A stretch of DNA of 64,000 bases, taken from positions 1 through 64,000 of the forward strand of contig CAZXGF010000005.1 in assembly GCA_964640185.1 (NCBI GenBank), written 5' to 3'. Below the pieces are notes generated by a model that was not told the origin of the DNA, did no database searches, and saw only the letters and a program-made list of their open reading frames with translations. Below, piece after piece: positions 5,588-64,000 of the stretch. A program made the translations under genes and the position numbers. Source of the DNA: an uncultured Verrucomicrobiota bacterium (lineage in GTDB: Bacteria > Auribacterota > JABMQX01). Positions within the stretch are counted from its first letter, which is position 1; each line of letters starts with the position of its first letter.

Positions 5588-5740
5588 TTGTGTACCTCCG
5601 CCGCAGACCAGGATTCATTCTTGTACCGCCGGCTCTCTCTTGCCGCCCGTCTCGCGCGTTTTGGCAGCCTGCTGGGGCGCGGGCAAGCGTGCGAATCAGA
5701 GAGTGAGCCGGACGCGACAGCCCCACCTTAGTGCTCTGAC

Positions 5741-8734: not shown

Positions 8735-8830
8735 CATGGGCAAGATGCCCATGCCACGCCCCCCTGCGTGCTCTGCGCACTCTGCGGTTCCACGCTCAGC
8801 CGCCCGTAACTGAGGGGTTACTACTGTCAA
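8735..8830. repeat. Hairpin repeat modules: palindrome CATGGGCAAGATGCCCATG plus CTCAGccgcccgtaaCTGAG
   Basis: The perfect palindrome at about 8741-8759 recurs at about 25573, 29901 and 47842. The gtaactgagg module recurs at 601, 916 and 54450. Confidence 0.7.
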
Positions 8831-17723: not shown

Positions 17724-18767
17724 TTAAAGAGGTAGATCCCGGCTCGGCGCGCGGTCCGCTTTTGCGGCGTAAATAGAGAATAGCATTCGAGCGAGGCGGG
17801 AAGAGAGCCCCTCCTTCGCGTAGATAATTGCTGCGCCGGGATCAAAACCGACGCCCTCAAGAATCCTGGCAAGGCTTGCTCTGTATGCGGCCCTGGTCGA
17901 CAAGCGCATTCTTGCCTCTATCATGTTGGACTCAAGGCCACATATGACCAGAAAAGGGTCTTGCCTGACCTTGCCAGCCATGCGTCTCATGTCCCGGGGC
18001 CGGCCCCTGTGGACGCCGAAGCACGCGTCGGCCTCGTCCCAGCCCGGACCGTGGAATTGCACCCATCCTCCGGCTCCCCGAGGGCCCGTCCAAGCACCCG
18101 CTGCCCCGGGCCGTTGGACCCTCAACCTGTGGGCCATGTGCGCTCGCGTCAGTTGCACCAGTCGGCCAAGGCCGATGGGCTGCCACTGTACCTCAGGCGG
18201 CCCCCATCGCGTGCCTCTTTCGTTCCGCTGTCTGAGTCCCTGGGCCATGTACTGCGAGGAGAGCATCGCCGCCAGGTCATCGCTGAGGCCTTCTAATACG
18301 TACGTCACCGCCGTCCCGGGATTAAGTCCGCCGTCCACCATTGCGCTCGCCAGATAGATGCGATAACGGGTCCTGGCGGTCGGTCGCATCGCCGCTCGCG
18401 CCATCTTGGACTCGAGGGCCATCATGGCACCGACGGGATTCTTCTGTATCTTCTTCATGACCGCGGCCTCGTCTAAAGCCTTGCCCTTGCGAACATGATA
18501 GCGCGCTCTTGTTCCACCGTAGCTCGCCCCCTTGAACTCTATCCATCCCCCGTCACCCCCTGCAGGCGGAGGTTGCGTTTCAGGGCGGCCTTCTGGGTTG
18601 CGGCTGTTCGTCCCTGCCCCTGACGCCACCTCCTGGCCCGGGCCCGTTCTCTGGGCTCTTGGACTGGTCCTGGGCTCGGGCGTCGGTCCCGCCCCAGCGG
18701 GCTCAGCGGCCAAAGACCCCCCGGCGATAGCCAGAGCGCTAACGATGACTGTACGTAGGCTTTGCAT
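17724..18767 (-). CDS. Secreted hypothetical protein built from two tandem repeats of about 110 aa
   Basis: Start taken at MQSLRTVIVSALAIAGGSLAA (signal peptide). Internal duplication: WIEFKGASYGG...YVLEGLSDDLAAML versus WVQFHGPGWDE...YAKEGLSSRLARML. Confidence 0.5.
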   Translation of the reverse strand: MQSLRTVIVSALAIAGGSLAAEPAGAGPTPEPRTSPRAQRTGPGQEVASGAGTNSRNPEGRPETQPPPAGGDGGWIEFKGASYGGTRARYHVRKGKALDEAAVMKKIQKNPVGAMMALESKMARAAMRPTARTRYRIYLASAMVDGGLNPGTAVTYVLEGLSDDLAAMLSSQYMAQGLRQRNERGTRWGPPEVQWQPIGLGRLVQLTRAHMAHRLRVQRPGAAGAWTGPRGAGGWVQFHGPGWDEADACFGVHRGRPRDMRRMAGKVRQDPFLVICGLESNMIEARMRLSTRAAYRASLARILEGVGFDPGAAIIYAKEGLSSRLARMLFSIYAAKADRAPSRDLPL

Positions 18768-19617
18768 TTTGTTCCCCTTCGCGCTTACGTCGCGCGTCCC
18801 AACACAGCTTTGCCAGATTTTCGACCACAATCGCCACACGCGGATGCTCCGGTCCGAAGGCTTTTTCCAGTATCCCGAGAGCTCGCTCGCAAAGCGGCTC
18901 CGCTTCCGCATATTTCCCCTGTGAATGATAGACCGCAGCCAGATTGTTCAGGGTGTTGGCAATGGCGGGGTGCTCTGGTCCGAGAGCCTTTTCCCTTATT
19001 GCGAGTGCCCGTTTGTTGAGCCGCTCCGCCTCGCCGTACTTGCCCTGGGAAAGGTAAATCCCCGCGAGATTGCACAGCGACTGCACAACGTCAGGATGCT
19101 CCCCTCCGAGAGCCTTTTCGCATATCCCCAAAGCTCGCCTACAAAATGTCTCAGCCTCGGCGTATCTGCACTGAAAATAGTAAAGCAGCCCCAGATTGTT
19201 CAAAGAAGTCGCAACGTCAGGATGCGCAGAGAGAAGTCTCTTTTCCCGTATCGCCAGAGCTCGCTTGTAAAGGGGTTCCGCTTCAGCATACCTGCTCTGC
19301 TCCCTGCAAACCTCTGCGAGATTGTTGAGGCAGGTCGCCACCAAAGGGTGATCCGCCCCGAGGGCTTCTTCCCAAATCGCCAGAGCTCGCTCGTAAAGCG
19401 GCTCGGCTTTCGCATATTTCCCCCGTGAATGATAAAGCGCAGCGAGATTGTTCAGGGATGTCGCGACGTTGCAATGATGGGCGTCGAACGCCCTCTCTGC
19501 AACTTCCAAACCTCTTTCTGCCACACCGGCAGCCTCTGAATATCGCCCTTCCTGATAAAGCACACGTGCCTGAGCGTTCAGCGCCTTCCACGACCTTTCA
19601 TCCTCGCAACTGGACAT
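18739..19617 (-). CDS. Tetratricopeptide (TPR_12-type) repeat protein
   Basis: Seven or more repeats of LNNLA.LY..QG+Y.EAEPLY.RALAI.EKALG.EHP.VA. Confidence 0.85.
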   Translation of the reverse strand: MSSCEDERSWKALNAQARVLYQEGRYSEAAGVAERGLEVAERAFDAHHCNVATSLNNLAALYHSRGKYAKAEPLYERALAIWEEALGADHPLVATCLNNLAEVCREQSRYAEAEPLYKRALAIREKRLLSAHPDVATSLNNLGLLYYFQCRYAEAETFCRRALGICEKALGGEHPDVVQSLCNLAGIYLSQGKYGEAERLNKRALAIREKALGPEHPAIANTLNNLAAVYHSQGKYAEAEPLCERALGILEKAFGPEHPRVAIVVENLAKLCWDARRKREGEQNAKPTYSHR

Positions 19618-20415: not shown

Positions 20416-22023
20416 ATGGATAATGTGCATTTCAGCGTTCAGACGGAGCATCCGACGGGCGGAGCGGGCGCTATCAGAAAACTCCTTTTGCAGAGCTGCC
20501 CTGTAATTGCCCTCATCGTCAGCTTGTTTTCGTTCTGCGGGGCAACGGCGAGCACGACGTGGTATGTGGACGGTTGGATTTCGCCGTCGGGTGATGGCAC
20601 ATCCTGGCTGACGGGTTTCAACACAATTCAGCAGGGCATTGACGAGGCGTCCGATGGCGACACGGTCGTTGTCGCCCCCGGCGCCTATTTCGAGAACATT
20701 CACTTCAAGGGCAAGAACATAGTCCTCCGCAGCAGGGCTCCCCACACTCCGGCATGGACCATTATTGATGGCAGCCAGGCGGGTCCCGTCGTCACCTTCT
20801 CCGGCACAGAAGACGAAACCTGCGTCCTTTCCGGCTTTACAGTCCGCAACGGGAAGGCCAAGGACGCCGAGGGCGCCGGAATTTGCGGCGGGACAAGCGA
20901 ACACCACACTCGCGCCACCATAGAGAACAACATCATCACCGCCAACTTCGGCATAGACGCCTTTGCTCGCGGCGGGGGGCTGGCTTACTGCGACGGCACG
21001 ATCGAGAACAACACGATTACCGGCAACACGCTGATTATGCCCCCGATTTTTCCGGGGCAAAACAGCGAAGGCGGTGGGCTGTACAAGTGTAACGGTCGCA
21101 TCCGGGACAATACGATTTCAGACAACACCGCCGACCCAATAGGAAAAGGCGGCGGGTTGTGCAGATGCCAGGGCAGTATCGAGAACAACACCATCTCTGG
21201 AAACTCCGCCGCGTACGGCGGCGGACTCTTCGTGTGCGGAGCCGAGATCGTGAACAACATCATCGAGGGCAACTCCTCAGATAACGAGGGCGGCGGGCTG
21301 TATAAGTGCGATGGCGCCATTCGCAGCAACTCGATTATCGGCAACTCGGCCGGCTATGGCGGGGGGCTTTCTGCCTGTGAGGGCACGGTCCTCAATAACA
21401 CCATCGTCGGGAACTGGACGACATCCCCCGACGGCGCCGGTGGCGGGCTTTACGTTTGCAGTGGTCAGATACGCAACTGCATCATCTGGGGAAATAACGC
21501 CTCGCAGTGCGAGCAACTCCTCGGTTCCAGAGATGTTGCCTATTCATGCGTAGAGGGATGGACCGGTGATGGACAAGGGAACATAGCCCTGAATCCACGC
21601 TTCGTTGATCCGGATGGTCCCGACAACGACTCAAACACGTACGACGATAACAACTATCGCCTCTCGTCGGATTCGCCATGTGTTGACGCAGGGGACAACT
21701 CGGTGCTCGACCAACCCGGGTTCGACCTCGATAGGAACTTGCGCATCGCCTTTGGCGGAGCATCGCTTACCGTGGATGTGGGAGCCTACGAGTACAATTC
21801 TGTGCCGCTCGCGGCGCCCCGCGTCGCAGTGGACGATGGCGGCGGCATCCGCCTCACCTGGGACAGCCAGCCGAACGACACCTTTACCGTCTCGTCATGC
21901 GTTGACCTCTTCACCGGCGTGTGGCTTGAGGAAGCAACAATTTCCTCCGACGGGGCAACCATCTCCTGGACGGATGCGACCCTCCTCAGCGACGCGAAAT
22001 TCTATCGCATCGAAGCAAAGTAG
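20416..22023 (+). CDS. Secreted right-handed parallel beta-helix repeat protein (pectin-lyase fold) with a C-terminal domain ending KFYRIEAK
   Basis: Repeated NNTITGN / DNTISDN / NNIIEGNS..GGGL coils. Signal peptide. RBS GGAGGAG. Confidence 0.8.
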   Translation: MDNVHFSVQTEHPTGGAGAIRKLLLQSCPVIALIVSLFSFCGATASTTWYVDGWISPSGDGTSWLTGFNTIQQGIDEASDGDTVVVAPGAYFENIHFKGKNIVLRSRAPHTPAWTIIDGSQAGPVVTFSGTEDETCVLSGFTVRNGKAKDAEGAGICGGTSEHHTRATIENNIITANFGIDAFARGGGLAYCDGTIENNTITGNTLIMPPIFPGQNSEGGGLYKCNGRIRDNTISDNTADPIGKGGGLCRCQGSIENNTISGNSAAYGGGLFVCGAEIVNNIIEGNSSDNEGGGLYKCDGAIRSNSIIGNSAGYGGGLSACEGTVLNNTIVGNWTTSPDGAGGGLYVCSGQIRNCIIWGNNASQCEQLLGSRDVAYSCVEGWTGDGQGNIALNPRFVDPDGPDNDSNTYDDNNYRLSSDSPCVDAGDNSVLDQPGFDLDRNLRIAFGGASLTVDVGAYEYNSVPLAAPRVAVDDGGGIRLTWDSQPNDTFTVSSCVDLFTGVWLEEATISSDGATISWTDATLLSDAKFYRIEAK

Positions 22024-22267
22024 TCGCGAAAACGGCAAGCGGAAAGAGGTCACGAACCCGGCGTCCGCTTTCGACGCCTGGCGCAGCAAAGGCGTCGGGT
22101 GCGGCTGCGGTTAAGTGGTAGAGGAATTGCCTTTCGATTGTTTCTCGCGCGTTGCAGGTTTCCGAGTCACGAACTGCAAAGGTGAGATAAATGCCCTTGA
22201 TCGAGTCCACGTGGATTGAGGGGACCCATCGGTCCCGTAGCTTTGATTAGGAGGCTGCTGGTTGTAC

Positions 22268-22372
22268 CGCCGGCATCTTGTCCCGCGTTCCGCGGGAGGG
22301 CATCTTGCCCCCGCTGTCCCGCCCGGGGCGGGAGACTCCCTCGGGACTGCCCCGCCATGGCGGGGCGGCGTT
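22268..22372. repeat. Cluster of GC-rich hairpin modules (cccgcgttccgcggg; ccccgccatggcgggg; cgagggcgtctcgccctcg type)
   Basis: The same modules are seen at 785-870, 25441-25490, 40620-40680, 40975-41020 and 63830-63870. Confidence 0.7.
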
Positions 22373-22389
22373 ACTCTTCGCAAACTCAC

Positions 22390-22528
22390 CCACTGAAACG
22401 TAGCCGCACCCAAGGCATCGCATCACGGGTGCACAAACCAGGCGGCGGTCCCTTCAACCTTCCCACCCTGACACCGCCTCTAAAGAAATGGCCGAAAAAC
22501 AGGTCTGGGTGCGGCTACATTTGAGTGG
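22390..22528. mobile_element. Small MITE (139 bp) bounded by 22-bp TIRs ccactgaaacgtagccgcaccc / gggtgcggctacatttgagtgg
   Basis: The inverted 22-mers were read directly. It shares its right TIR with the adjacent larger element. Confidence 0.7.
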
Positions 22529-22927
22529 CGGAACTGTCCTTGGACCTTGCCCGTGCCGGAATCTTGACCCCATCCCCCCACTCACCTTTACGAAAAGGAG
22601 AAAACGCCGGGCTATTCGAACTGGCCTCGAGGAATCTTTCGAGTCGTGACGCACATATCTCGCCCTTTCAGGGCTCATCATTCTTGAACGGGGGCGCTTT
22701 CTCAGGGCCTTGCCCTGAGCTTTATTAAGTCTGCCCTTACAGGGCGACCCCAAAGCAACTTCAGCCCCGAAGGGGCGCAATATTCCAGCCCAGGGCAACG
22801 CCCTGGGAAAGTCGTACGTGATGAAATACAAAAGCCCTGAAGGGGCGTGATAGGCTCATCCCCAATACACGGTTTGCTCCAGACACATGAGAGCCGACCC
22901 GCCTGCCACTGAAATGGAGCCACACCC
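22507..22927 (+). mobile_element. MITE-like element (about 420 bp) with TIRs gggtgcggctacatttgagtgg (22507-22528) and ccactgaaatggagccacaccc (22906-22927). Inverted copy of 1095-1497
   Basis: Co-linear reverse-complement similarity to 1095-1497. No transposase present. Confidence 0.7.
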
Positions 22928-23014
22928 GAGACAAAGGGAGGGCCGCAACTATCTGGCATAAAAAGAGTTGCGGCACTACTCGTTCTGCGGCAACCGCCTG
23001 CAAAATCCTGGTGA

Positions 23015-23060
23015 AACGGATTAGAAATCCGTTGCTCTATCCAACTGAGCCACGGGCGCC
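23015..23060 (-). tRNA. tRNA-Arg(TCT)-like 5' half (acceptor strand, D-arm, anticodon arm). The T-arm and 3' acceptor strand were not found, so it is likely truncated or disrupted
   Basis: On the minus strand the sequence GGCGCCCGTGGCTCAGTTGGATAGAGCAACGGATTTCTAATCCGTT closely matches E. coli argU through the anticodon arm. No GGTTCGAATCC-type T-arm or complementary 3' acceptor was seen within 150 bp. Confidence 0.45.
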
Positions 23061-25379: not shown

Positions 25380-25960
25380 TGCGTCACTTACGGGCGGCTG
25401 AGGGTGCAACCGCACGGCCCGCGGACCACGCGGAGCCGGCCTTGTACCCCCGGCATCTTGTCCCGCGTTCCGCGGGAGGGCATCCTGCGCCCGACTGGCT
25501 CCGGCTGTACCCTTCACGGCAAAAAAGCCGCCCCCACATGGCATCCCGCCGGAGGCGGGCCCCGTAGGAATCATGGGCAAGATGCCCATGCCACGGCAGC
25601 AAAGGACTCGGTTCTTCTCATCTTCCTCTCTGCGCCTCTGCCTTGTCCTATTCCTCCCTTTTTCCCTCCCCCGCCAAGGCGGGGTTTCCGCCCGAGACTG
25701 AGGGCTTACAAGGGGGGCGTGGCCGCGTTTGCGGGGCATATCGGGCACGGCCCCTGTCATTCTCGTCGTGGTCGCCACGCCGCCGCAGGCAGGGCTGCCG
25801 GGCTTTAGCCGGCGCCACCCTTAGCCACCGGCTTTAGTCGGTGGTATCGGATACGAGATTCTTCTCGTGACAGCCGGCTTCAGCCGGGCTTCTCGACCAA
25901 AGGATTCATCCGAAGTATGCCACGCAAATACGGCCGCACCCAACCAGGGCACTTGGAAAG
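25380..25960. repeat. Repeat island of hairpin modules. It ends with a 22-nt TIR-like motif (ccacgcaaatacggccgcaccc, 25920-25941) preceded by gccgggcttctcgaccaaaggattcatccgaag
   Basis: Near-identical module string at 35020-35096. The CATGGGCAAGATGCCCATG palindrome lies at about 25573. The ORFs here are almost certainly spurious. Confidence 0.7.
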
Positions 25961-29548: not shown

Positions 29549-29611
29549 GGTGCGAGGTCTCCGCTTCCGGTTCGTGCTCTATTGTAGGGTGACGGCTGCT
29601 TAGTGCTACGA

Positions 29612-30092
29612 TTCATAAGTTCGGTGGCGTATTTGCTCAGACACGATAACAGGATGCACATGATTCTTGGAATCCCGTTTATCCTTGCGAAAGGTTCTTG
29701 GCCTTTCGGTTTACCTCAACTTCTCACGTACTGGCTTACCAGCGGCAACGAGCTTGTTAATGAGTTGTATCTCCTGAGCCGCCACAACAACCTCCTTGAC
29801 CCCGCGGCACGCGGGGCTCGACGATGACCGTATCTCCTTCGACCCCGCCATGACCGGGCAGGAAGGTCTGGAGGAACGTGGCACGGGCGTCTCGCCCGTG
29901 GAAGGTCATGGGCAGGATGCCCATGCCACGTCTTCTCCGCCAATTCATTGCGCTTGGTGATCTTTCACCCAGCACCTTCCCGGCTTGTGATTTACTGGAT
30001 GGCTCACGTCTCTGGAAGAATCCCGTGTATCCTGTTATCCCGTCAAAATAGCTCCTTTCACGGCGCCATTATACGTCACCGTATTTGCGAAT
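29612..30092. mobile_element. MITE-like element (about 480 bp) with TIRs, sitting exactly between atpE (c) and atpF (b). It contains the CATGGGCAGGATGCCCATG palindrome
   Basis: Left end ataagttcggtggcgtatttgctcagacacgataacaggatgcac. Right end gtatcctgttatcccgtc...ttatacgtcaccgtatttgcgaatcc is its inverted counterpart. A copy at 51120-51556 is about 85% identical. It ends 8 bp from the atpE stop. Confidence 0.75.
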
Positions 30093-30100
30093 CCATGTGC

Positions 30101-30346
30101 TCAGCTAAACAACGGTCCCACTTTGAAGAGGAGCAGCATCGAAACCAGCAGACAATAAATCGCCGTGGACTCAATCATCGCCAGGCTCACGAAGAGCGTG
30201 CGGGTAATTGTCCCCGCAAGGTCCGGTTGGCGAGCCATAGCCTCCAGCGCCGCGGCCGCCGTTCGCGCCTCGCCCAGAGCGGGACCAATCGAGCCAATGG
30301 CAATCGTTCCGCCCGCAACGATGACTGCCAGCATTTCCGTCGTCAT
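30101..30346 (-). CDS. atpE: ATP synthase c subunit with a complete Na+-binding signature (Q..E-S-T-x-x-Y)
   Basis: ARQPDLAG and IESTAIY match the Ilyobacter tartaricus Q32/E65/S66/T67/Y70 ligand set. 81 aa hairpin. RBS GGAGGAG. Confidence 0.9.
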   Translation of the reverse strand: MTTEMLAVIVAGGTIAIGSIGPALGEARTAAAALEAMARQPDLAGTITRTLFVSLAMIESTAIYCLLVSMLLLFKVGPLFS

Positions 30347-32154: not shown

Positions 32155-32345
32155 GTACTCCATTTCGGATTTCAGATTGCGGATTGCGGATTTCACGCTT
32201 TCAGGCTTTACCTTCTCTGCGGCAGTCCATTTCGGATTTCAGAGTTTGCACCTCTGCGGTTAAGTTCTCTGCTGCACTGCACTTTCGATTGCGGATTACG
32301 GATTTCAGGTCTCGGACCCTTGTGCTTTAGCTTCTCTGCGACACT
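32155..32345. repeat. Heptanucleotide-based repeat flank (degenerate GATTGCG / GATTTCG / GATTTCA units) 3' of the four-helix-bundle gene
   Basis: Direct repeat of 32725-32920, same orientation. It is tandem, not inverted. Confidence 0.8.
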
Positions 32346-32365
32346 CCATTTCGCATTTTTCGGCT

Positions 32366-32722
32366 CTACGCCTTTCTTTTCCTTGCGGTGTTTATGGAAG
32401 CGACGCTAATCGCCAAAAGGTCATCCGCTTCTTTCATGAGGGATTCGAGCTTTTCAGCTTTGACAATCTGCGCTTCGATCAGCAACTCCATCCAATAGAC
32501 CGACTCGTCGGCTTCCTCCTCAACTGTTCCCATTTTTGAAATGAAATCGGCGGTTGATTTCGCACGGCACGCAGCGCGATAGTTCGCTCCCACCGAGGTG
32601 CCTGAGCGAAGTAACTGGCGCCCCACCACGCCAGCAGTCTGTCCCTTTGGCAGACATTCCACCAGTTGAATAATCCGAAGTCCAAAGCCCTTTGTCCTTC
32701 CCTTCAACTCTTCCCTGTCCAC
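32366..32722 (-). CDS. Four helix bundle protein (TIGR02436 / 23S rRNA intervening-sequence protein family)
   Basis: QLLRSGTSVGANYRAACRAKSTADFISKMGTVEEEADESVYWMELL is the family signature. 118 aa. Confidence 0.85.
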   Translation of the reverse strand: MDREELKGRTKGFGLRIIQLVECLPKGQTAGVVGRQLLRSGTSVGANYRAACRAKSTADFISKMGTVEEEADESVYWMELLIEAQIVKAEKLESLMKEADDLLAISVASINTARKRKA

Positions 32723-32724
32723 GG

Positions 32725-33112
32725 CTCACTCCATTTCGGGTTCCAGATTTCAGATTGCGGATTTCGTGCTTTCAGGTTTTACCCTCTCTGTTGCGACCGA
32801 TTTCGCATTGGGGATTTCGGATTTCGGATTTCACGCTTTCAGGCTTTACCTTCTCTGCGGCAGTCCATTTCGGATTCCAGATTGCGGGCTACCGACTTGG
32901 AAATCCGCATGCCCGATTTCGCATTGCGCCGTTCTGCTTTGTTCTCCTTCTCCTCGCGTTGCTTATAGACGCGATGGCAATTGCCAAAAGCCAGTAGATT
33001 CTTCCACCTCCGAATCGCGATTGTGAATTCTCGACCTCGACCACGCAATCTGCAATCTGCAATCCGCAGTCCGCAGTCCGCAATCTGCAATCTGCAATCC
33101 GCAATCCGCAAT
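32725..33112. repeat. Second copy of the heptad flank (32725-32920), then a 3' fragment of a second four-helix-bundle gene (about 32930-33010, ...KNLLAFGNCHRVYKQREEK), then a pure (GATTGCG)n array of about 10 units (33040-33110)
   Basis: Nucleotide and peptide similarity to the intact gene's 3' end. The array reads cgcaatctgcaatctgcaatccgcagtccgcagtccgcaatc... on the plus strand. Confidence 0.75.
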
Positions 33113-33114
33113 CA

Positions 33115-34584
<1,470 letters not shown>

Positions 34585-34959
34585 CTACCCGAGAAAACCT
34601 TTGACGCCGATTATGCCGTGTTGCCGTCGCTTTATCAAGTTGAAATTACCCGGCCGGTAACACCTCGGTTACGGGTAGCTGAGGGTGGAACCACAGGGCG
34701 CGCAGAGCACGCAGAGGCTGCAGATGACCGTGCGGCAAAACGAAACGCCTGCCGAAGTTGTCAGCATCGTGTGGGGTGTCCCCTCCGCTCATCGGGGATA
34801 CCGACGCCTTTTCTCTGCGCTCTCTCCGGTGAGTTCCCCCTGAAGGTGAGAGATTCCCGAGGCAATTTCAACGGGTGTGGCTGCGAAATCGTGGCATATT
34901 CGGTAGGCCTCCTTCAATCTCCTCGCTGTCGTCCTTGCGCCGGACATGCCCCGCCCTCG

Positions 34960-35100
34960 GCGGGGCGCCCCCCCTTAGCCACCTGCTTCAGCTGGTGGTC
35001 ATCGGATAGGCCGTCTCCGGCGTGAGAGCCGGCTTTAGCCGGGCTTCTCGAACAAGGGATTCATCCATAACTTGCCACGGAAATACAGCCGCACCCATTT
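34960..35100. repeat. Hairpin-module repeat ending in ccacggaaatacagccgcaccc (35075-35096), in the atpD upstream region
   Basis: Near-identical to 25855-25941. Confidence 0.7.
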
Positions 35101-35109
35101 CAACCGCCG

Positions 35110-40384: not shown

Positions 40385-40640
40385 CGGCTGAATTCCACTC
40401 GTATGCGCTCCGCATCAATTGGAGCTGCTCGCGAGACGATTGTGAAATCGCTTCGCCGCTATATGCGGGTGTGGTTCCATTTCAGTGCGTGATCTTGCCG
40501 AGTGTAACGCCGGCGTCTCGCCCTCGGCCTGGCGCCCCAGGCGCCATCCCCCGTACGCACCCCCCTCCGCGCCTTTGCGTCAATTTCCGGGTGTGGCTCC
40601 ATTTCAGTAGGCGATCTTGCCGAGTGTAACGCTGGCGTCT
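40385..40640. repeat. Direct repeat unit 1 (about 235 bp) containing inverted copies of the 22-nt TIR motif (ggtgtggttccatttcagtg; gggtgtggctccatttcagtagg)
   Basis: Compared base by base with 40858-41095. Part of a repeat island of about 1.4 kb (40320-41700). Confidence 0.8.
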
Positions 40641-40857
40641 CGCCGGCAGTCTCGAGGGCGTCTCGCCCTCGATTCTTTCTTATCTCCTTTGCGTCTTCGC
40701 GTCTTTGCGAGAGGTCTCCCCCGTCCCATTTCTCCCGCTAAGAGGCCAACCGTCCCGCCCATCTTATTTTTCACTTGCCGTTCTCCACTCCGAGTTCTGC
40801 GACGCGGAACAAACAAACCAAGGGCGACTTCTCTACCACTTAAACGTAGCCACACCC

Positions 40858-41095
40858 ATTGTATGCGCTCCGCATCAATTGGAGCTGCTCGCGAGACGAT
40901 TGTGAAATCGCTTCGCCGCTATATGCGGGTGTGGTTCCATTTCAGTGCGTGATCTTGGCGAGTGTAACGCTGGCGTCTCGCCGGCAGTCCCGAGGGCGTC
41001 TCGCCCTCGGCCTGGCGCCCCGGGCGCCATCCCCCCGTACGCACCCCCCTCCGCGCCTTTGCGCCTTTGCGTCAATTTCCTCTTTCCTTGACAAC
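40858..41095. repeat. Direct repeat unit 2. Further related units at 40660-40862 and 41510-41700 end in ccacttaaacgtagccacaccc / ccacttaaacgcagccgcactcc
   Basis: As above. Confidence 0.8.
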
Positions 41096-41795
41096 TGACA
41101 ATAAATACACTATAATACACTCAAAAATGGCAGCGAAACCATAACGCAATCAGGACCCGCAAATGATCACCCATTCCAGTATGGCTTCTCGTCGAGAAAC
41201 TACTGGAAACTACTGGAATTTTAAGCCCTTTTTGGGGTTAAAGAACCCTCCGCAATTTCCTCTGCGCCAGTGGATTGCGCTCAGATTTTTCGCCCTTTTT
41301 GTGCTCAGAAACCCCGCGAACACCGCTTCTGGCGCCGCCCCTGTCGCTGTATTTGACTCGCCGTTGACGTGCTGTCTTCCGCTTCCCAGGGCCACGGCTT
41401 TCCCCCGGGCCGAGCGCCAGCCCAAAAAGGCAAAGTGTTCTCCACTCCGTCGGCTCCACAACCGAGGACCTTTGGGCTTAATGGCCCACCGGTTCTACCG
41501 CCTGCATCTTGCGCTCGATTCTTTCCTACATCCTTTGCGTCTTCGCGCCTTTGCGAGAGGCCTCCTCCCCTTTCTCGGGCCCAGACGCCAGCCCTTATGT
41601 CTATCCAATCTCACACTTGCGATTCACCGCTCGCAGTTCTGCAGCGCGCCACAACCACACCAAAGGCAACCTCTCTACCACTTAAACGCAGCCGCACTCC
41701 CTATATGCCAAAGTCTTGCTGTCATCCGGCATCGGCAGTACAATGGACGCAATGCCAAACGTTCCAACTGTTTTGCGAACAAGGAGGATCTTCCA

Positions 41796-43361
41796 ATGGG
41801 CTCGCTCTCGAAACAGCGTGTTGTACTCCGTGCTCTTCTGGCTGCTGGTTTTGTAACTGCTTGTTCTGTGTGGGAGGCGACGGCGGTTCCGCCGCCAGCG
41901 ACTCGAACCCCACTGGTGCGGGTCGTTGACCTTCGAGTTGGCGAATCGCGCAGCGTCGACCTGTGCGACGGAACGAAGGCACAGGCCAAGCTGCTCCGCG
42001 TGGAGGACAGCCGCGACGCTGTCCGCTCGGCGGTGCGGGTTTCGCGGGTGACAATCGAGGTCAACAGCCAGCGGGCTGTGCTCATTTCGGCGACGTACCA
42101 CCTGCCTGTTAAGGTTGCGGGCGTGCAGGTTGATTGCCCGATTACGAGGGGCTATTCTGCCAACAGCAGTCAGGACGCCTGGGGGCTGGTCAAAGACGCC
42201 CGGCTCCGGCTCTGGCCGGCTGGTTCGTCGTGGGTGGCGCCCGGAACCTTCGCCTACCCGGTCAAGCAGCGGTGGTTCGCGTCCGACACTCAGATGGCCA
42301 ACGAACCCACATTCGTCAACGGCGACGAGCAGCCGTCCCAACGCAAAATCTACTATCACTACGGACTGGACTTCGGCGGCGCCGAGGGGATGGTTGATGT
42401 AATCGCGGCAACCGACGGGCTGGTCGTTTCCCGCGGTACCGATGTGCTCCCCGGCTACGAGGGTACTCCAGTGCGCCCTCGCTACGACGTGGTGTACCTC
42501 CTCGACGACCGCGGCTGGTACTGCCGCTACAGTCATCTGCAACGCATTGACCCCGCCGTGAAACTTGGGCAGCGGGTCAAAATGCGCCAGAACATCGGCG
42601 TGCTCGGCAAGGAGGGGGCAAGCGGCGGCTGGTCGCATCTGCACTTCGACATCCAGAGCCGCCAGCCCTCCGGCAAGTGGGGCACACAAGCCGCATACCC
42701 TTTCGTGTGGGAGGCGTACCGGCGAGAGTACTCGCCCACCTTGGTCGCGGTGGCGAGGCCCCATCACCTGGCGTGGACCGGTGACGCGGTCACTCTCGAT
42801 GGAATGCAATCGTGGACCGCCGCAGGCAAGATCGCCCGCTACGACTGGACGTTCACCGACGGAACCAAGGCCTCCGGACCTACGGTCAAACACGCCTACG
42901 CTCGTCCCGGCGCCTACAGCGAGATTCTGAAAGTCACCGACGTGCACGGGCGGGTTGCTTACGATTTCGCCGTCGTGCAGGTCATTGACAAATCACAGCC
43001 GGGGCGGCTTCCGCCGACGATACACGCTGCCTACTCGCCCACATTCGGCATCAAGCCGGGTGCCCCGGTCACCTTCAAGGTGCGAACTTTTCGCACGACC
43101 GCTGGCAGAGAAACATGGGACTTCGGTGACGGCGCCCCGCCGGTTACAGTCAAGTCGGACGGCAATGTCAATCCCCACGCGAAGGACGGCTATGCCGTAA
43201 CCGTTCACCGCTTCAGCCGCCCGGGCGACTACCTGGTCCGGGTGGAGCGTAACGACCAGTACGGTCAAAAGGCCATTGCCCATCTGCGCGTGCGGGTACG
43301 CCGGCCCGATGCCGCGAACTCACCCGCAGACCGACGTAACGACAATGGAAAGCACGGGTAG
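41796..43361 (+). CDS. M23 family metallopeptidase lipoprotein with two C-terminal PKD domains
   Basis: Lipobox AGFVTAC. YYHYGLDFGG...GWSHLHFDIQ carries the HxxxD/HxH M23 motifs. YDWTFTDGTKASG...GAYSEILKVTD and WDFGDGAPP...GDYLVRVERNDQYG are PKD signatures. RBS AAGGAGGA. Confidence 0.8.
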   Translation: MGSLSKQRVVLRALLAAGFVTACSVWEATAVPPPATRTPLVRVVDLRVGESRSVDLCDGTKAQAKLLRVEDSRDAVRSAVRVSRVTIEVNSQRAVLISATYHLPVKVAGVQVDCPITRGYSANSSQDAWGLVKDARLRLWPAGSSWVAPGTFAYPVKQRWFASDTQMANEPTFVNGDEQPSQRKIYYHYGLDFGGAEGMVDVIAATDGLVVSRGTDVLPGYEGTPVRPRYDVVYLLDDRGWYCRYSHLQRIDPAVKLGQRVKMRQNIGVLGKEGASGGWSHLHFDIQSRQPSGKWGTQAAYPFVWEAYRREYSPTLVAVARPHHLAWTGDAVTLDGMQSWTAAGKIARYDWTFTDGTKASGPTVKHAYARPGAYSEILKVTDVHGRVAYDFAVVQVIDKSQPGRLPPTIHAAYSPTFGIKPGAPVTFKVRTFRTTAGRETWDFGDGAPPVTVKSDGNVNPHAKDGYAVTVHRFSRPGDYLVRVERNDQYGQKAIAHLRVRVRRPDAANSPADRRNDNGKHG

Positions 43362-47528: not shown

Positions 47529-47779
47529 CGCTTTCCTCCATGAAATAGTTCAGCGAACTGTGATAACGCCAGATGCGTAAAACCGCTCTGCCTTCCCTGC
47601 ATTGACGCCCGCGTTCGGACGTCACGTGCGTGAACCGATTATCGCCATAGCGACCCCGAAGAGTCAAGGACGATCGTCCGCCGATAATAATGCCTGACTT
47701 ACGGGTGGGATAGGGGAACTTTGGTGCATGAGAAATCCGAAAGCATTGACACAGGGATCCTTCGGCCTCGCGTCGGCCA

Positions 47780-47995
47780 GTACCTTTCAGGATGAAAAGA
47801 ACAGCCGTCCCCAACGTGGCATCCCGCTGGAGGCGGGACCCGTGGGAATCATGGGCAAGATGCCCATGCCACGGCATCCGAGGATCGGGTCGTTCTCATC
47901 CGCCTCTCTGCGCCTTTGCGTTGTCCTCCTCTTCCCTGCTTCCCTCCCCCGCCAAGGCGGGGTACCCGCTCGAGAGGGAGGGATCACCGCTGATA
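47780..47995. repeat. Hairpin-module repeat (CATGGGCAAGATGCCCATG palindrome; ctctctgcgcctttgcg...gccaaggcgggg module)
   Basis: Matches 25570-25700. Confidence 0.7.
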
Positions 47996-51077: not shown

Positions 51078-51119
51078 CCCTGATCGTTGCTGCTTCCCTT
51101 CATCCTAAGTGTTCCAATT

Positions 51120-51556
51120 CACAAATTCGGCGACGTATTCTTCCTCTGACAGGATAACAGGATAGACACGATTTTTGAAATCCTGTTTATCCCGGCGAAA
51201 GGTTGTTCACCTTTCGCTCTAACTCAACTTCCCGCTGACATAGTGGCTTGCCGGTGGCTACGATATTGTTAACGAGTTGCATGTGCTGAGCCGCCACAAC
51301 AACCTGCTTGACCCCGCGCCACGCGGGGCTCGACAATGACCGTATCTCTTTCGACCCCGCCATGACCGGGCTGCAAGGTCTCGGACAACTTCTCCGTCAA
51401 TCGTTTGCGGTTCGTGATATTTCACCCAGCGGCCCGCCGGCCTGTGATTTACTGGATGGCTCACGTGCCTGGAACTATCCAGTCTATCCTGTTATCCCGT
51501 CAAAATAGCTGCTTTCACGACACCATTATACGTCACTGTATTTGCGAATCCCTGTA
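51120..51556. mobile_element. MITE-like element, second copy of the 29612-30092 family
   Basis: About 85% identity over about 430 bp, including both TIRs. Confidence 0.75.
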
Positions 51557-51769
51557 CTAAGCCCACAAGGAAAAATTGACAACGAATTCCACAATTCGCT
51601 CTGTCCCATTTCTGCGAGGGGCCGCACCCAAAATGACCATTTGAAAAAATCGCCGGCAAAAACTATTCTACCCCCATAGCCTATTGTCAGCTCGTTTTCC
51701 CCGAGTGTCCCGTCTCTCGCAACCGGCGACGGCCATTGGGACGACAACGCTGCCGGAGGAGATTAGAAA

Positions 51770-54289: not shown

Positions 54290-54480
54290 CTCTGTAGGAC
54301 GATCTTGCCATCCCTAACCTCACGTCGGAGGTTCGTGCCCACGCCAAATTGTACTGCACATGCCCCCGAGACAGCCGGCAAGATGCCAGCGGTACAAGGC
54401 CCGCTCCGGCTCGTCCGCGGGCTCTGCGGTTCCACCCTTAGCCGCCGGTAACTGAGGCATTACCATTCGATGACCTCAAG
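54290..54480. repeat. Hairpin-module repeat (ggcaagatgcc...; gccgccggtaactgaggc)
   Basis: Shared modules with 8735-8830 and 594-620. Confidence 0.6.
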
Positions 54481-58139: not shown

Positions 58140-58750
58140 TCGGTCACGTATTTTTTTTGACGGGATAACAGGATGTGTGGGATTGCGGACTTCGGATTGC
58201 GGATTTCGGATTCCGCAATCCGCAATCTGCACTCCGCAATGGGCAGGGTGTATCTCACGAGCAACAACATCCTCCCTCAGGGAGCCTCAGCCCCACGATA
58301 ACCGTACCTGCTTCGACCCCGCCAGGGCGGGGGAGTGCGAAGTCTGCGACAACTTGTCAGCCAATTGCTTGTTCTTCCTGGTTTTTCAGAGTGCCCCACG
58401 GGCGTTCGGATTTACCGGATACCTGGGTGTGACTGTATTTGAGTGGTGGGGTTGGGATGAATCCTCTGGTCGAGAAGCCCGGCTGAAGCCGGCTCCAGAG
58501 AGGAAAAAGGCGCGCCCTGTGACCACCCGCTGAAGCGGGTGGCTAACGGGGATGCCAGCTAAAGCCTGGCAGAAATGAGGCTGTGCTGCGGTGTTGAACC
58601 CGAACCACGTGCCTGAGAAAGAACGGTGGAAAGAGGTCCCGGCTGCCACTGAAATATAGCCACACCCGGATACCTCACATTCCTCGAACGATCCGGTCTA
58701 TCCTGTTATCCTGTCGAAGGATTCCCTTCACCCCGCACTATACGTTACGG
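58140..58750. mobile_element. Composite MITE-like element (about 610 bp) with TIRs of the 29612 family. It carries a heptad-repeat palindrome (gattgcggatttcggattccgcaatccgcaatc), CTGAAGC hairpins and a ccactgaaatatagccacaccc motif (58644-58665)
   Basis: Left end ttcataaattcggtcacgtattttttttgacgggataacaggatgtg. Right end ggtctatcctgttatcctgtcgaagg...ctatacgttacggtacttgcgaacgc is its inverted counterpart. Confidence 0.65.
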
Positions 58751-63399: not shown

Positions 63400-64000
63400 T
63401 ACCCTTATCGCATATCATCCCTTCCGGATCCGTATATATTCTCGCATACTTTCGTCGCTTAGTCAACGGGTGCGGGGTGTGGCCGCATCTCCCTGGCACG
63501 CTGTCACGCCTCGTTTTCAACCTCTCCCGTCGCACGTTTACGCCGTGCCTCTGTCCCTCTGTCATACAACGGAAAAGGCCACCGCCTCCGTATGGCCTCA
63601 GTCTCGGGCGGATACCCCGCCTTCTCGGTGGAGAGAAAAAGGGAAGAGAAGGGTAACGCAAAGGCGCAGAGACGGACCGTAACGCCGGCATCTTGACGGC
63701 TATGTCTCAGGGGACTGCCCAGCCCCCTCCGAGGCCGGGACCTCTTGGCGAGAGAATACGGGAGTGAGGAGACCTCTCGCAAAGGCGCGAGGGATGTAGG
63801 AAAAAATCGTGGGTGAGACGCCCTCGGGACTGCCGCCGAGACGGCGGCCGGCAGACGCGAATGCCGTGGCATCGTGGCGCACGGGCGTCCCGCCAGTGCT
63901 TGGCGTGCGGCCCGGCCTGTGGGTTCGTTGCCGGCGCCCCTGTTAGGCACGGGCTTCAGCCCTGCTTCAGCGGGGTCAGGGGCTTTAGCCATTTTCACCG
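63400..64000. repeat. Repeat island of hairpin modules (ggcacgggcttcagcc...gctttagcc) continuing across the window edge and matching 1-600
   Basis: The 63935-63975 string gttaggcacgggcttcagcc matches 20-45. Confidence 0.6.

Follow-up and report, generated by a model that had tools for sequence, protein, structure and literature searches.

The 22-nt sequence CCACTGAAATGTAGCCGCACCC, which recurs throughout the window (the whole stretch of 64,000 nucleotides analyzed here, from an uncultured Verrucomicrobiota bacterium), is very probably the terminal inverted repeat (TIR) of a family of MITEs that would be moved by a transposase of the ISKra4 family and directed toward promoters, a reading to which we assign a probability of roughly 90%. 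The repeats bound short non-coding elements flanked by 8-bp target-site duplications (TSDs), the same repeats enclose a transposase gene in related metagenomes, and the insertions lie at a preferred spacing from promoter-like sequences. A dense and unexplained repeat thereby becomes an annotated family with defined ends, a TSD, a partner transposase and a target preference.

The 22-nt repeat and the elements it bounds

At no more than 3 mismatches, the 22-mer has 8 matches in the 64-kb window, against 0 in 100 dinucleotide shuffles. At no more than 5 mismatches it has 14, against 0.05 expected, and an earlier sequence-only reading that had counted at least 10 copies in 64 kb was therefore correct, its positions holding to within about 5 nt. 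The matches at no more than 5 mismatches, with their strands, are as follows:

1476+, 22097-, 22390+, 22507-, 22906+, 25920+, 35075+
40467-, 40589-, 40836+, 40927-, 41678+, 58425-, 58646+

The ...CACCC end of the 22-mer faces outward at every copy. When the copies are aligned in motif orientation, the flank beyond ...CACCC is different at each copy while the sequence inside the motif is conserved within subfamilies, so that ...CACCC marks the outer boundary; read from the outer end inward, the TIR consensus is GGGTGYGGCTACRTTTSAGTGG. The arrangement of the copies is mainly convergent, a (-) copy followed by a (+) copy (reading GGGTG...CACCC), and neighbours within 1 kb of each other, counted over the window together with the fetched loci (prefixed L), comprise 84 convergent, 19 divergent and 12 tandem pairs.

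Convergent pairs bound about nine elements or fragments in the window, ranging from 122 to 774 nt and totalling about 3.0 kb, or 4.7% of its length. All of them are intergenic and lie among ordinary chromosomal genes, the neighbours including genes for an SPFH/Band 7 protein, an M23 peptidase, dihydroorotate dehydrogenase, ATP synthase subunits, a sigma-54 activator and a CotH protein. The elements and their associated features are:

1079-1497 (left end at 1078/1079), 419 nt: MITE of the large (~420 nt) subfamily, inverted relative to 22507-22927
22097-22411, 315 nt: MITE with both TIRs, GGGTGCGGCTGCGGTTAAGTGG and CCACTGAAACGTAGCCGCACCC
22412-22506, 95 nt: inter-element spacer, including the right TSD copy of 22097-22411
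22507-22927, 421 nt: MITE of the large subfamily with both TIRs and an internally palindromic body
25715-25941, 227 nt: degenerate MITE of the 224-243 nt subfamily, with the decayed left TIR GGGCGTGGCCGCGTTTGCGGGG
34873-35096, 224 nt: MITE with both TIRs and the perfect TSD ATTTCAAC (34865-34872, 35097-35104)
40467-40588, 122 nt: left-end MITE fragment in a rearranged cluster
40589-40857, 269 nt: MITE with both TIRs
40927-41700, 774 nt: composite element bounded by both TIRs, with the perfect TSD CTATATGC (40919-40926, 41701-41708)
58425-58667, 243 nt: MITE with both TIRs and the perfect TSD GGATACCT (58417-58424, 58668-58675)
63475-63496, - strand: possible degenerate left TIR (6 mismatches), for which no partner was found before the window end

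Between 22 and 23 kb, the stretch 22390-22528 had been read as an element of its own. It is instead the 95-nt spacer between two elements: the outer (...CACCC) ends of its 22-mers face one another, so that 22390 is the right end of 22097-22411 and 22507 the left end of 22507-22927, and homologues of both adjoining elements end at their TIRs. The larger element claimed at 22507-22927 stands as an inverted-repeat-bounded unit of 421 nt, with internal inverted symmetry over 22626-22882. In the case of its proposed inverted copy at 1095-1497, both the copy and the inversion hold (83.7% identity over 424 nt), and the left boundary has to be moved to 1078/1079; the right TIR of this copy is perfect and the left one degenerate (13/22). 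In the rearranged cluster, the flank upstream of 40467-40588 is duplicated at 40861-40926, and in the composite 40927-41700 a left and a right MITE arm enclose about 400 nt specific to this genome. The genome-specific middle of this composite contains a perfect consensus sigma-70 promoter (TTGACA-17-TATAAT, 41088-41116), directed toward the M23-peptidase gene about 700 nt away.

Repeated sequences of other kinds surround these elements. Further intergenic repeat families, which lack the 22-mer and are 65-84% identical, pair 25479-25709 with 47754-47987, 29599-30105 with 51105-51562, 595-717 with 910-1024, and 8739-8821 with 54377-54463, and the long intergenic regions of this genome are mosaics of repeated hairpin-rich modules. 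Tandem arrays of 7-nt units (GATTGCG or GATTTCG, complement CGCAATC) occupy long intergenic regions at 32161-33127 and 58181-58248. Within coding sequence, an in-frame repeat with a 126-nt period is found in the ORFs around 17724-19617 (18771-19600), and the gene at 20416-22023, which has no Pfam match, carries 57-99-nt units (GGGL...N.I.GN-like) at 20971-21414 and is represented by many paralogues in related loci.

A tRNA-Arg(TCT)-like sequence lies at 22989-23059 on the - strand, 62 nt from a MITE end. Its 5' half and anticodon arm are normal, and its T-arm is aberrant and short and is followed by a hairpin and a T-run; the Rfam tRNA model gives 31.4 bits against a threshold of 29, and ARAGORN calls no tRNA in the whole 64 kb. 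We read it either as a pseudogene or remnant or as an unusual tRNA-like RNA. As the tRNA-Arg-like 5' half adjoins the large element, an interrupted tRNA or group I intron was considered and rejected, on the grounds of the weak Rfam tRNA match, the absence of any intron-family match, and the large element's own TIRs and TSD-bearing copies elsewhere.

Target-site duplications and the partner transposase

We scanned a degenerate form of the motif against GTDB species genomes and JGI metagenomes; counts from both scans are among the matches listed. Four MAG species, of which two bear the label Verrucomicrobiota, account for most of the listed genome matches, and the window's own genome is not among these species. 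The window and the fetched loci together contain 81 non-redundant convergent pairs that lie 100-1000 nt apart. An 8-bp direct repeat placed exactly at the ends matches at 8/8 positions in 26 of these pairs, at 7/8 in 15 and at 6/8 in 6, and a match of at least 7/8 is thus found in 41/81 pairs, against 0/324 controls in which the flanks were shifted outward. Inverted partners and target-site duplications, for which the sequence-only reading had proposed a search, were both found in other genomes, the duplication being 8 bp long.

Within the window, three TSDs are perfect (34873-35096, 40927-41700 and 58425-58667). The element 22097-22411 is flanked by AAGGCGTC (22089-22096) and AAGGCATC (22412-22419), a 7/8 match, and 25715-25941 by TACAAGGG and AACCAGGG, a 6/8 match; 1079-1497 has no recognizable TSD, and none is found at the window copies 22507-22927 and 40589-40857. 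Every window subfamily is represented elsewhere by full-length copies with their own TSDs. Copies 90-91% identical to 22507-22927 occur in L124 (91%, with the perfect TSD GCTATCAG), L132 and L194, the same loci that hold full-length homologues of the 1079-1497 subfamily. Homologues of 22097-22411 with perfect TSDs are found in L177 and L026, copies about 90% identical to 40589-40857 with perfect TSDs in L151 and L194 and a 7/8 TSD in L114, and copies 97-98% identical to 58425-58667 at other sites in L113, L165 and L096. Exact TSDs, combined with full-length copies elsewhere that have TSDs of their own, are the signature of transposition and rule out a static repeat. Among the TSD-flanked elements, 51 of 55 measure 142-576 nt, and the MITEs as a whole are non-coding units of about 140-600 nt that fall into several subfamilies with unrelated interiors and common termini.

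No long TSD-flanked element and no candidate among recurrent ORFs beside solo TIRs were found in the 85 genome loci, and a pair in L004, 3.8 kb apart, was rejected as an IS since it encloses ordinary genes. A 1,299-bp element in L179 (6822-8120) has the same TIRs and a 7/8 TSD and carries a HicA-toxin gene (Pfam PF07927) without a transposase; it is a passenger-carrying, MIC-like non-autonomous element. An IS whose TIRs match, for which a search had likewise been proposed, emerged from the metagenome scan as an autonomous ISKra4-family element in related metagenomes and MAGs. It occupies positions 322-1778 of L127 (1,457 bp), its TIRs differ from the 22-mer by 1 and 3 mismatches, and it is flanked by the perfect TSD TGAACTGC. 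The MITE interpretation, already put forward in the sequence-only reading, therefore finds support in the TSDs, the inverted partners and the autonomous IS whose TIRs are the same.

The L127 IS codes for a zinc-finger N-terminal ORF (ORF1) and a 330-aa ORF2. ORF2 alone scores 211 bits against the NCBIfam model NF033572 ("ISKra4 family transposase", cut-off 205), ORF1 matches positions 14-99 of the same model, and ORF2 also matches Pfam UPF0236 and, weakly, DDE_Tnp_ISL3; from these profile matches, we class the predicted transposase in the ISKra4 family (Mutator-like). The repaired L127 protein retrieves ten more loci by tblastn, with the gene at the expected distance from a TIR in every one, and four of the ten (L016, L079, L039 and L054) belong to three of the four MAG species that carry the MITEs. 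The earlier statement that the window holds no transposase is upheld for the cognate enzyme, which has no tblastn match at E<=1e-3 in the 64 kb; beyond this, the check covered ten neighbouring genes by Pfam. The sequence common to the IS and the MITEs is limited to the terminal 21-25 bp, which indicates that the MITE bodies are not deletion derivatives of the transposase gene.

Annotated plasmid ISKra4 transposases are 22-28% identical to this protein, and the plasmid search gave no closer annotated relative. Among the best 120 relatives in a large protein collection, a single one has a named source ("ISKra4 family transposase [Phycisphaerae bacterium]", 51% identity), and by these comparisons the predicted enzyme belongs to a separate, mostly metagenomic clade of the ISKra4 family. 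Its gene is split at a T7 tract (GTCTTTTTTTCCC), at 735-745 in L127 and also in L172, L141 and L178, with ORF2 in the +1 frame. In four copies only 70-76% identical in protein to L127, ORF2 is +1 relative to ORF1, at the identical site GTCTTTTTTTCCCTCTGGAC, and down to about 50% identity nearly all of the best 120 relatives comprise ORF2 alone and are about 330 aa long. In two relatives, P0031 and P0032 (443-444 aa), the ORFs are fused; their junction reads ...SFFPLD..., exactly the sequence that results when one T is deleted from the T7 tract. Retention of the split down to about 50% protein identity argues for programmed recoding and against decay or sequencing error. The split is probably a case of such recoding, by transcriptional slippage or a +1 ribosomal frameshift, and with the reading frame split in almost all copies, expression would need this putative event.

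Short-read metagenome contigs often end in or beside these elements, as in L086 (which ends at window position 40942), L206-L211 and many scanned loci, and the IS copies assemble into separate contigs of their own, about 1.3-2 kb long. In practice, the element family is one reason why MAGs of this lineage are fragmented, and knowledge of copies at which contigs often break should improve both the annotation and the assembly of these uncultured lineages.

Spacing between insertions and promoters

When the empty sites are reconstructed and aligned, many show TTGACA-like and TATAAT-like hexamers just past the duplication. We scored TTGACA-(16 to 18)-TATAAT at offsets 0-29 in the 106 outward flanks of 53 distinct insertions. 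A score of at least 9/12 is reached by 17/106 flanks at offset 7, compared with 0-2 flanks at any one of the remaining 29 offsets, and the mean promoter score is also highest at offset 7. Counted beyond the 8-bp duplication, this offset places the start of the -35 box at 15 bp from the end of the element. Sites scoring at least 9/12 accompany at least 17/53 insertions (32%), and those scoring at least 8/12 accompany 28/53, about half. Within the window, a clear sigma-70-like promoter at this spacing of 15 bp accompanies only one insertion:

41716-41744, + strand: sigma-70-type promoter TTGCTG-17-TACAAT, the targeted feature, outside the element

This promoter lies to the right of 40927-41700, where the TSD (41701-41708) is followed by seven bases, TTGCTG (41716-41721), a 17-nt spacer and TACAAT (41739-41744), upstream of an M23-peptidase/PKD gene that starts at 41796.

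Both orientations of the MITEs relative to the promoter are found, and no TIR asymmetry that predicts the orientation was detected, in keeping with the remark that symmetric IRs abolish orientation bias (PMC3942029). In the case of the IS insertions, promoter-like sites occur only on the downstream side of the transposase gene, in 4/8 flanks against 0/5 on the other side, which are small numbers.

Taken together, these features suggest a mechanism in which a DDE transposase of the IS, encoded elsewhere, would bind the repeats and move the MITEs in trans, as we infer from the family. The target would be cut with an 8-bp stagger, which would produce the 8-bp duplication, and integration would be aimed at sigma-70-type promoters, at a point 15 bp upstream of their -35 box. 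Integration upstream of promoters would lead copies to accumulate in intergenic DNA, and repeated targeting of one spot would give rise to back-to-back arrays, such as the two nested ends with the common TSD AACGCAAC in L151, the adjacent elements at 22097-22927, and the MITE that lies directly against the IS in L127. By analogy with the family, transposition may proceed through a circular copy-out intermediate, and targeting may depend on contact with RNA polymerase or a sigma factor. Dozens of natural insertion sites bear on how Mutator-like bacterial transposases recognize promoters, and these sites also offer a free marker of promoter position in organisms without transcript data.

A conserved intergenic motif, ...CTATCCTGTTATCC(C/T)GTC..., is present at 29997-30047, 51454-51504 and 58668-58718, with complements near 5726, 29598 and 58117. 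The copy at 58668 begins at the TSD of 58425-58667 and has TATCCT near the expected -10 spacing, and the same motif-at-TSD arrangement is seen in L062 and L057. The motif at 58668-58718 and its kin may represent a lineage-specific promoter type.

Acido-Lenti-1 modules, competing explanations and related systems

The large elements carry a structured motif known from Rfam, Acido-Lenti-1 (RF01687), at the following positions:

1197-1241, + strand: Acido-Lenti-1 (RF01687) twin-hairpin module, 45.7 bits against a gathering score of 37, inside the MITE 1079-1497
22763-22807, - strand: Acido-Lenti-1 (RF01687) module, 45.3 bits against a gathering score of 37, inside the MITE 22507-22927
~22700-22746, + strand: weaker mirror-image Acido-Lenti-1 copy, seen on sequence inspection

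Modules in the large MITEs score 43-49 bits against the gathering score of 37, and further RF01687 matches, often inverted pairs, lie inside or beside MITEs in L033, L010 and L058. A profile built from the RF01687 matches finds 56 sites in the window and all loci, of which 52 fall within 500 nt inward of a TIR, an enrichment that is real and, because the loci were picked around TIRs, has no assignable exact size. In this lineage, Acido-Lenti-1 is MITE cargo that may lie on either strand, and an orphan Rfam motif thereby gains a concrete context. The twin-hairpin module matches RF01687, and the difference lies in its occurrence as transposable-element cargo, often as an inverted pair. The published members compared are from Lentisphaera araneosa, one NC_008009 sequence and marine metagenome scaffolds; in two of the 14 parts of the alignment, the published copies (Weinberg et al. 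2010, PMC2864571) stand in other repeat contexts. Six inner-TIR 9-mers, searched through the flank file, revealed no TIR match, and the few 9-mer matches belong to unrelated heptamer repeats. Heptamer arrays resembling the GATTGCG/GATTTCG arrays of the window occur in flanks of the marine-metagenome members.

It is tempting, and in our estimation rather doubtful, to view the MITEs as mobile cassettes that would deliver structured modules, including Acido-Lenti-1, to a fixed point 15 bp upstream of promoters and would thereby rewire the control regions in front of many genes. If this were true, Acido-Lenti-1 would be a transposon-borne DNA or RNA module, at least in this lineage, and not an independent small-RNA gene. 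The opposite assignment, in which the large elements are themselves Acido-Lenti-1 structured small-RNA genes and the 22-mers their conserved ends, could draw on the two matches above the gathering score (1197-1241 and 22763-22807) and on the richness of the element in short GC hairpins, evident on sequence inspection. It is very improbable, as the motif covers 45 of 421 nt and occurs on both strands within single elements, subfamilies that lack Acido-Lenti-1 bear the same TIRs and TSDs, 52/56 motif-like matches sit just inside a TIR, and the large subfamily already has a perfect TSD in L124. At dozens of sites, flanks with no other resemblance show exact 8-bp duplications, the same repeats surround a transposase gene, and unrelated interiors have only the termini in common. 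These observations leave scarcely any room for a non-mobile functional repeat (REP/BIME-like, an operator or another protein-binding site) spread by recombination or selection. Such a repeat would fit the strictly intergenic position of the copies, among many intergenic repeat families without the motif, and the cluster at 40.3-41.7 kb, which duplicates flank and element together, fits recombination.

A further possibility accepts the MITEs as genuine transposition products and holds that their mobilizing IS is extinct or inactive in this organism and the copies inert. The window lacks a transposase homologue, the left TIRs at 1079 and 25715 are degenerate, and three copies (1079-1497, 22507-22927 and 40589-40857) are without a TSD. 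Nearly all of the transposase genes found are interrupted, and in about ten other assemblies of the same population the structure is identical, with no presence/absence polymorphism, over the two intergenic regions compared (22.0-23.1 kb and 40.3-41.8 kb, holding five elements or fragments). A search for a syntenic empty site in a related species yielded none. We nonetheless consider the loss of mobility somewhat unlikely. Copies of the 243-nt element are 97-98% identical at different sites and have their own TSDs, which suggests that movement was not ancient; a TIR-flanked transposase fragment lies on Ga0315545_1000069 (L103), whose accession is in the range of samples holding this organism; and conservation of the T7 split to 50% protein identity points to regulation over decay.

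The preferred reading, a promoter-directed MITE family moved by an ISKra4-type enzyme, has close counterparts among known systems. The ISKra4 family corresponds to p-MULT 4, with the groups ISKra4, ISMich2 and ISAzba1 (Guerillot et al. 2014, PMC3942029), and in p-MULT elements the IRs measure 18-39 bp and have a terminal C, and the DRs measure 8-9 bp (PMC3942029). The family described here likewise has a 22-bp IR with a terminal C (...CACCC), an 8-bp DR and a match to NF033572 above the cut-off. For the ISKra4 group, more than 20% of insertion sites have a sigma-A promoter at 13-17 bp from the junction of IR and genome (PMC3942029), and insertion here is similarly about 15 bp upstream of the -35 box, with a peak at 15 bp. 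The ISMich2 group encodes its transposase in two ORFs, as here, but the shift is called -1 (PMC3942029), whereas ORF2 here is +1 at the T7 tract. TnGBS and ISLre2, with sigma-A promoters 15-17 bp away (PMC3942029), are alike in their fixed insertion upstream of such promoters, and one ISLre2-family element has symmetric IRs that permit both orientations (PMC3942029), as the MITEs do here. These p-MULT 3 elements, the TnGBS ICEs and the ISLre2 IS, differ in their transposase family (NF033529 gives 76.6 bits against a cut-off of 200 for the element described here) and in being from Firmicutes, and TnGBS is a large conjugative element.

Most copies here, unlike those known for the ISKra4 family, are non-autonomous derivatives; a literature search of incomplete coverage returned no description of MITEs or other non-autonomous derivatives of that family. 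Mobile insertion cassettes (MICs) are resembled by L179 6822-8120, a single example outside the window. Classical bacterial MITEs (Correia/NEMIS, RUP, ERIC and Nezha, among others) are small, non-coding, high-copy, intergenic elements with TIRs and a TSD that are mobilized in trans by an IS, and all of these traits are common to the elements described here, for which mobilization in trans would follow from the family. Most classical MITEs descend from the IS630, IS5 or IS1 families, with duplications that are short (e.g. TA) or of other kinds, and we know of none at a fixed promoter spacing. The elements of the window are a new MITE family of a new clade within the known ISKra4 family, for which promoter-proximal targeting has already been published.
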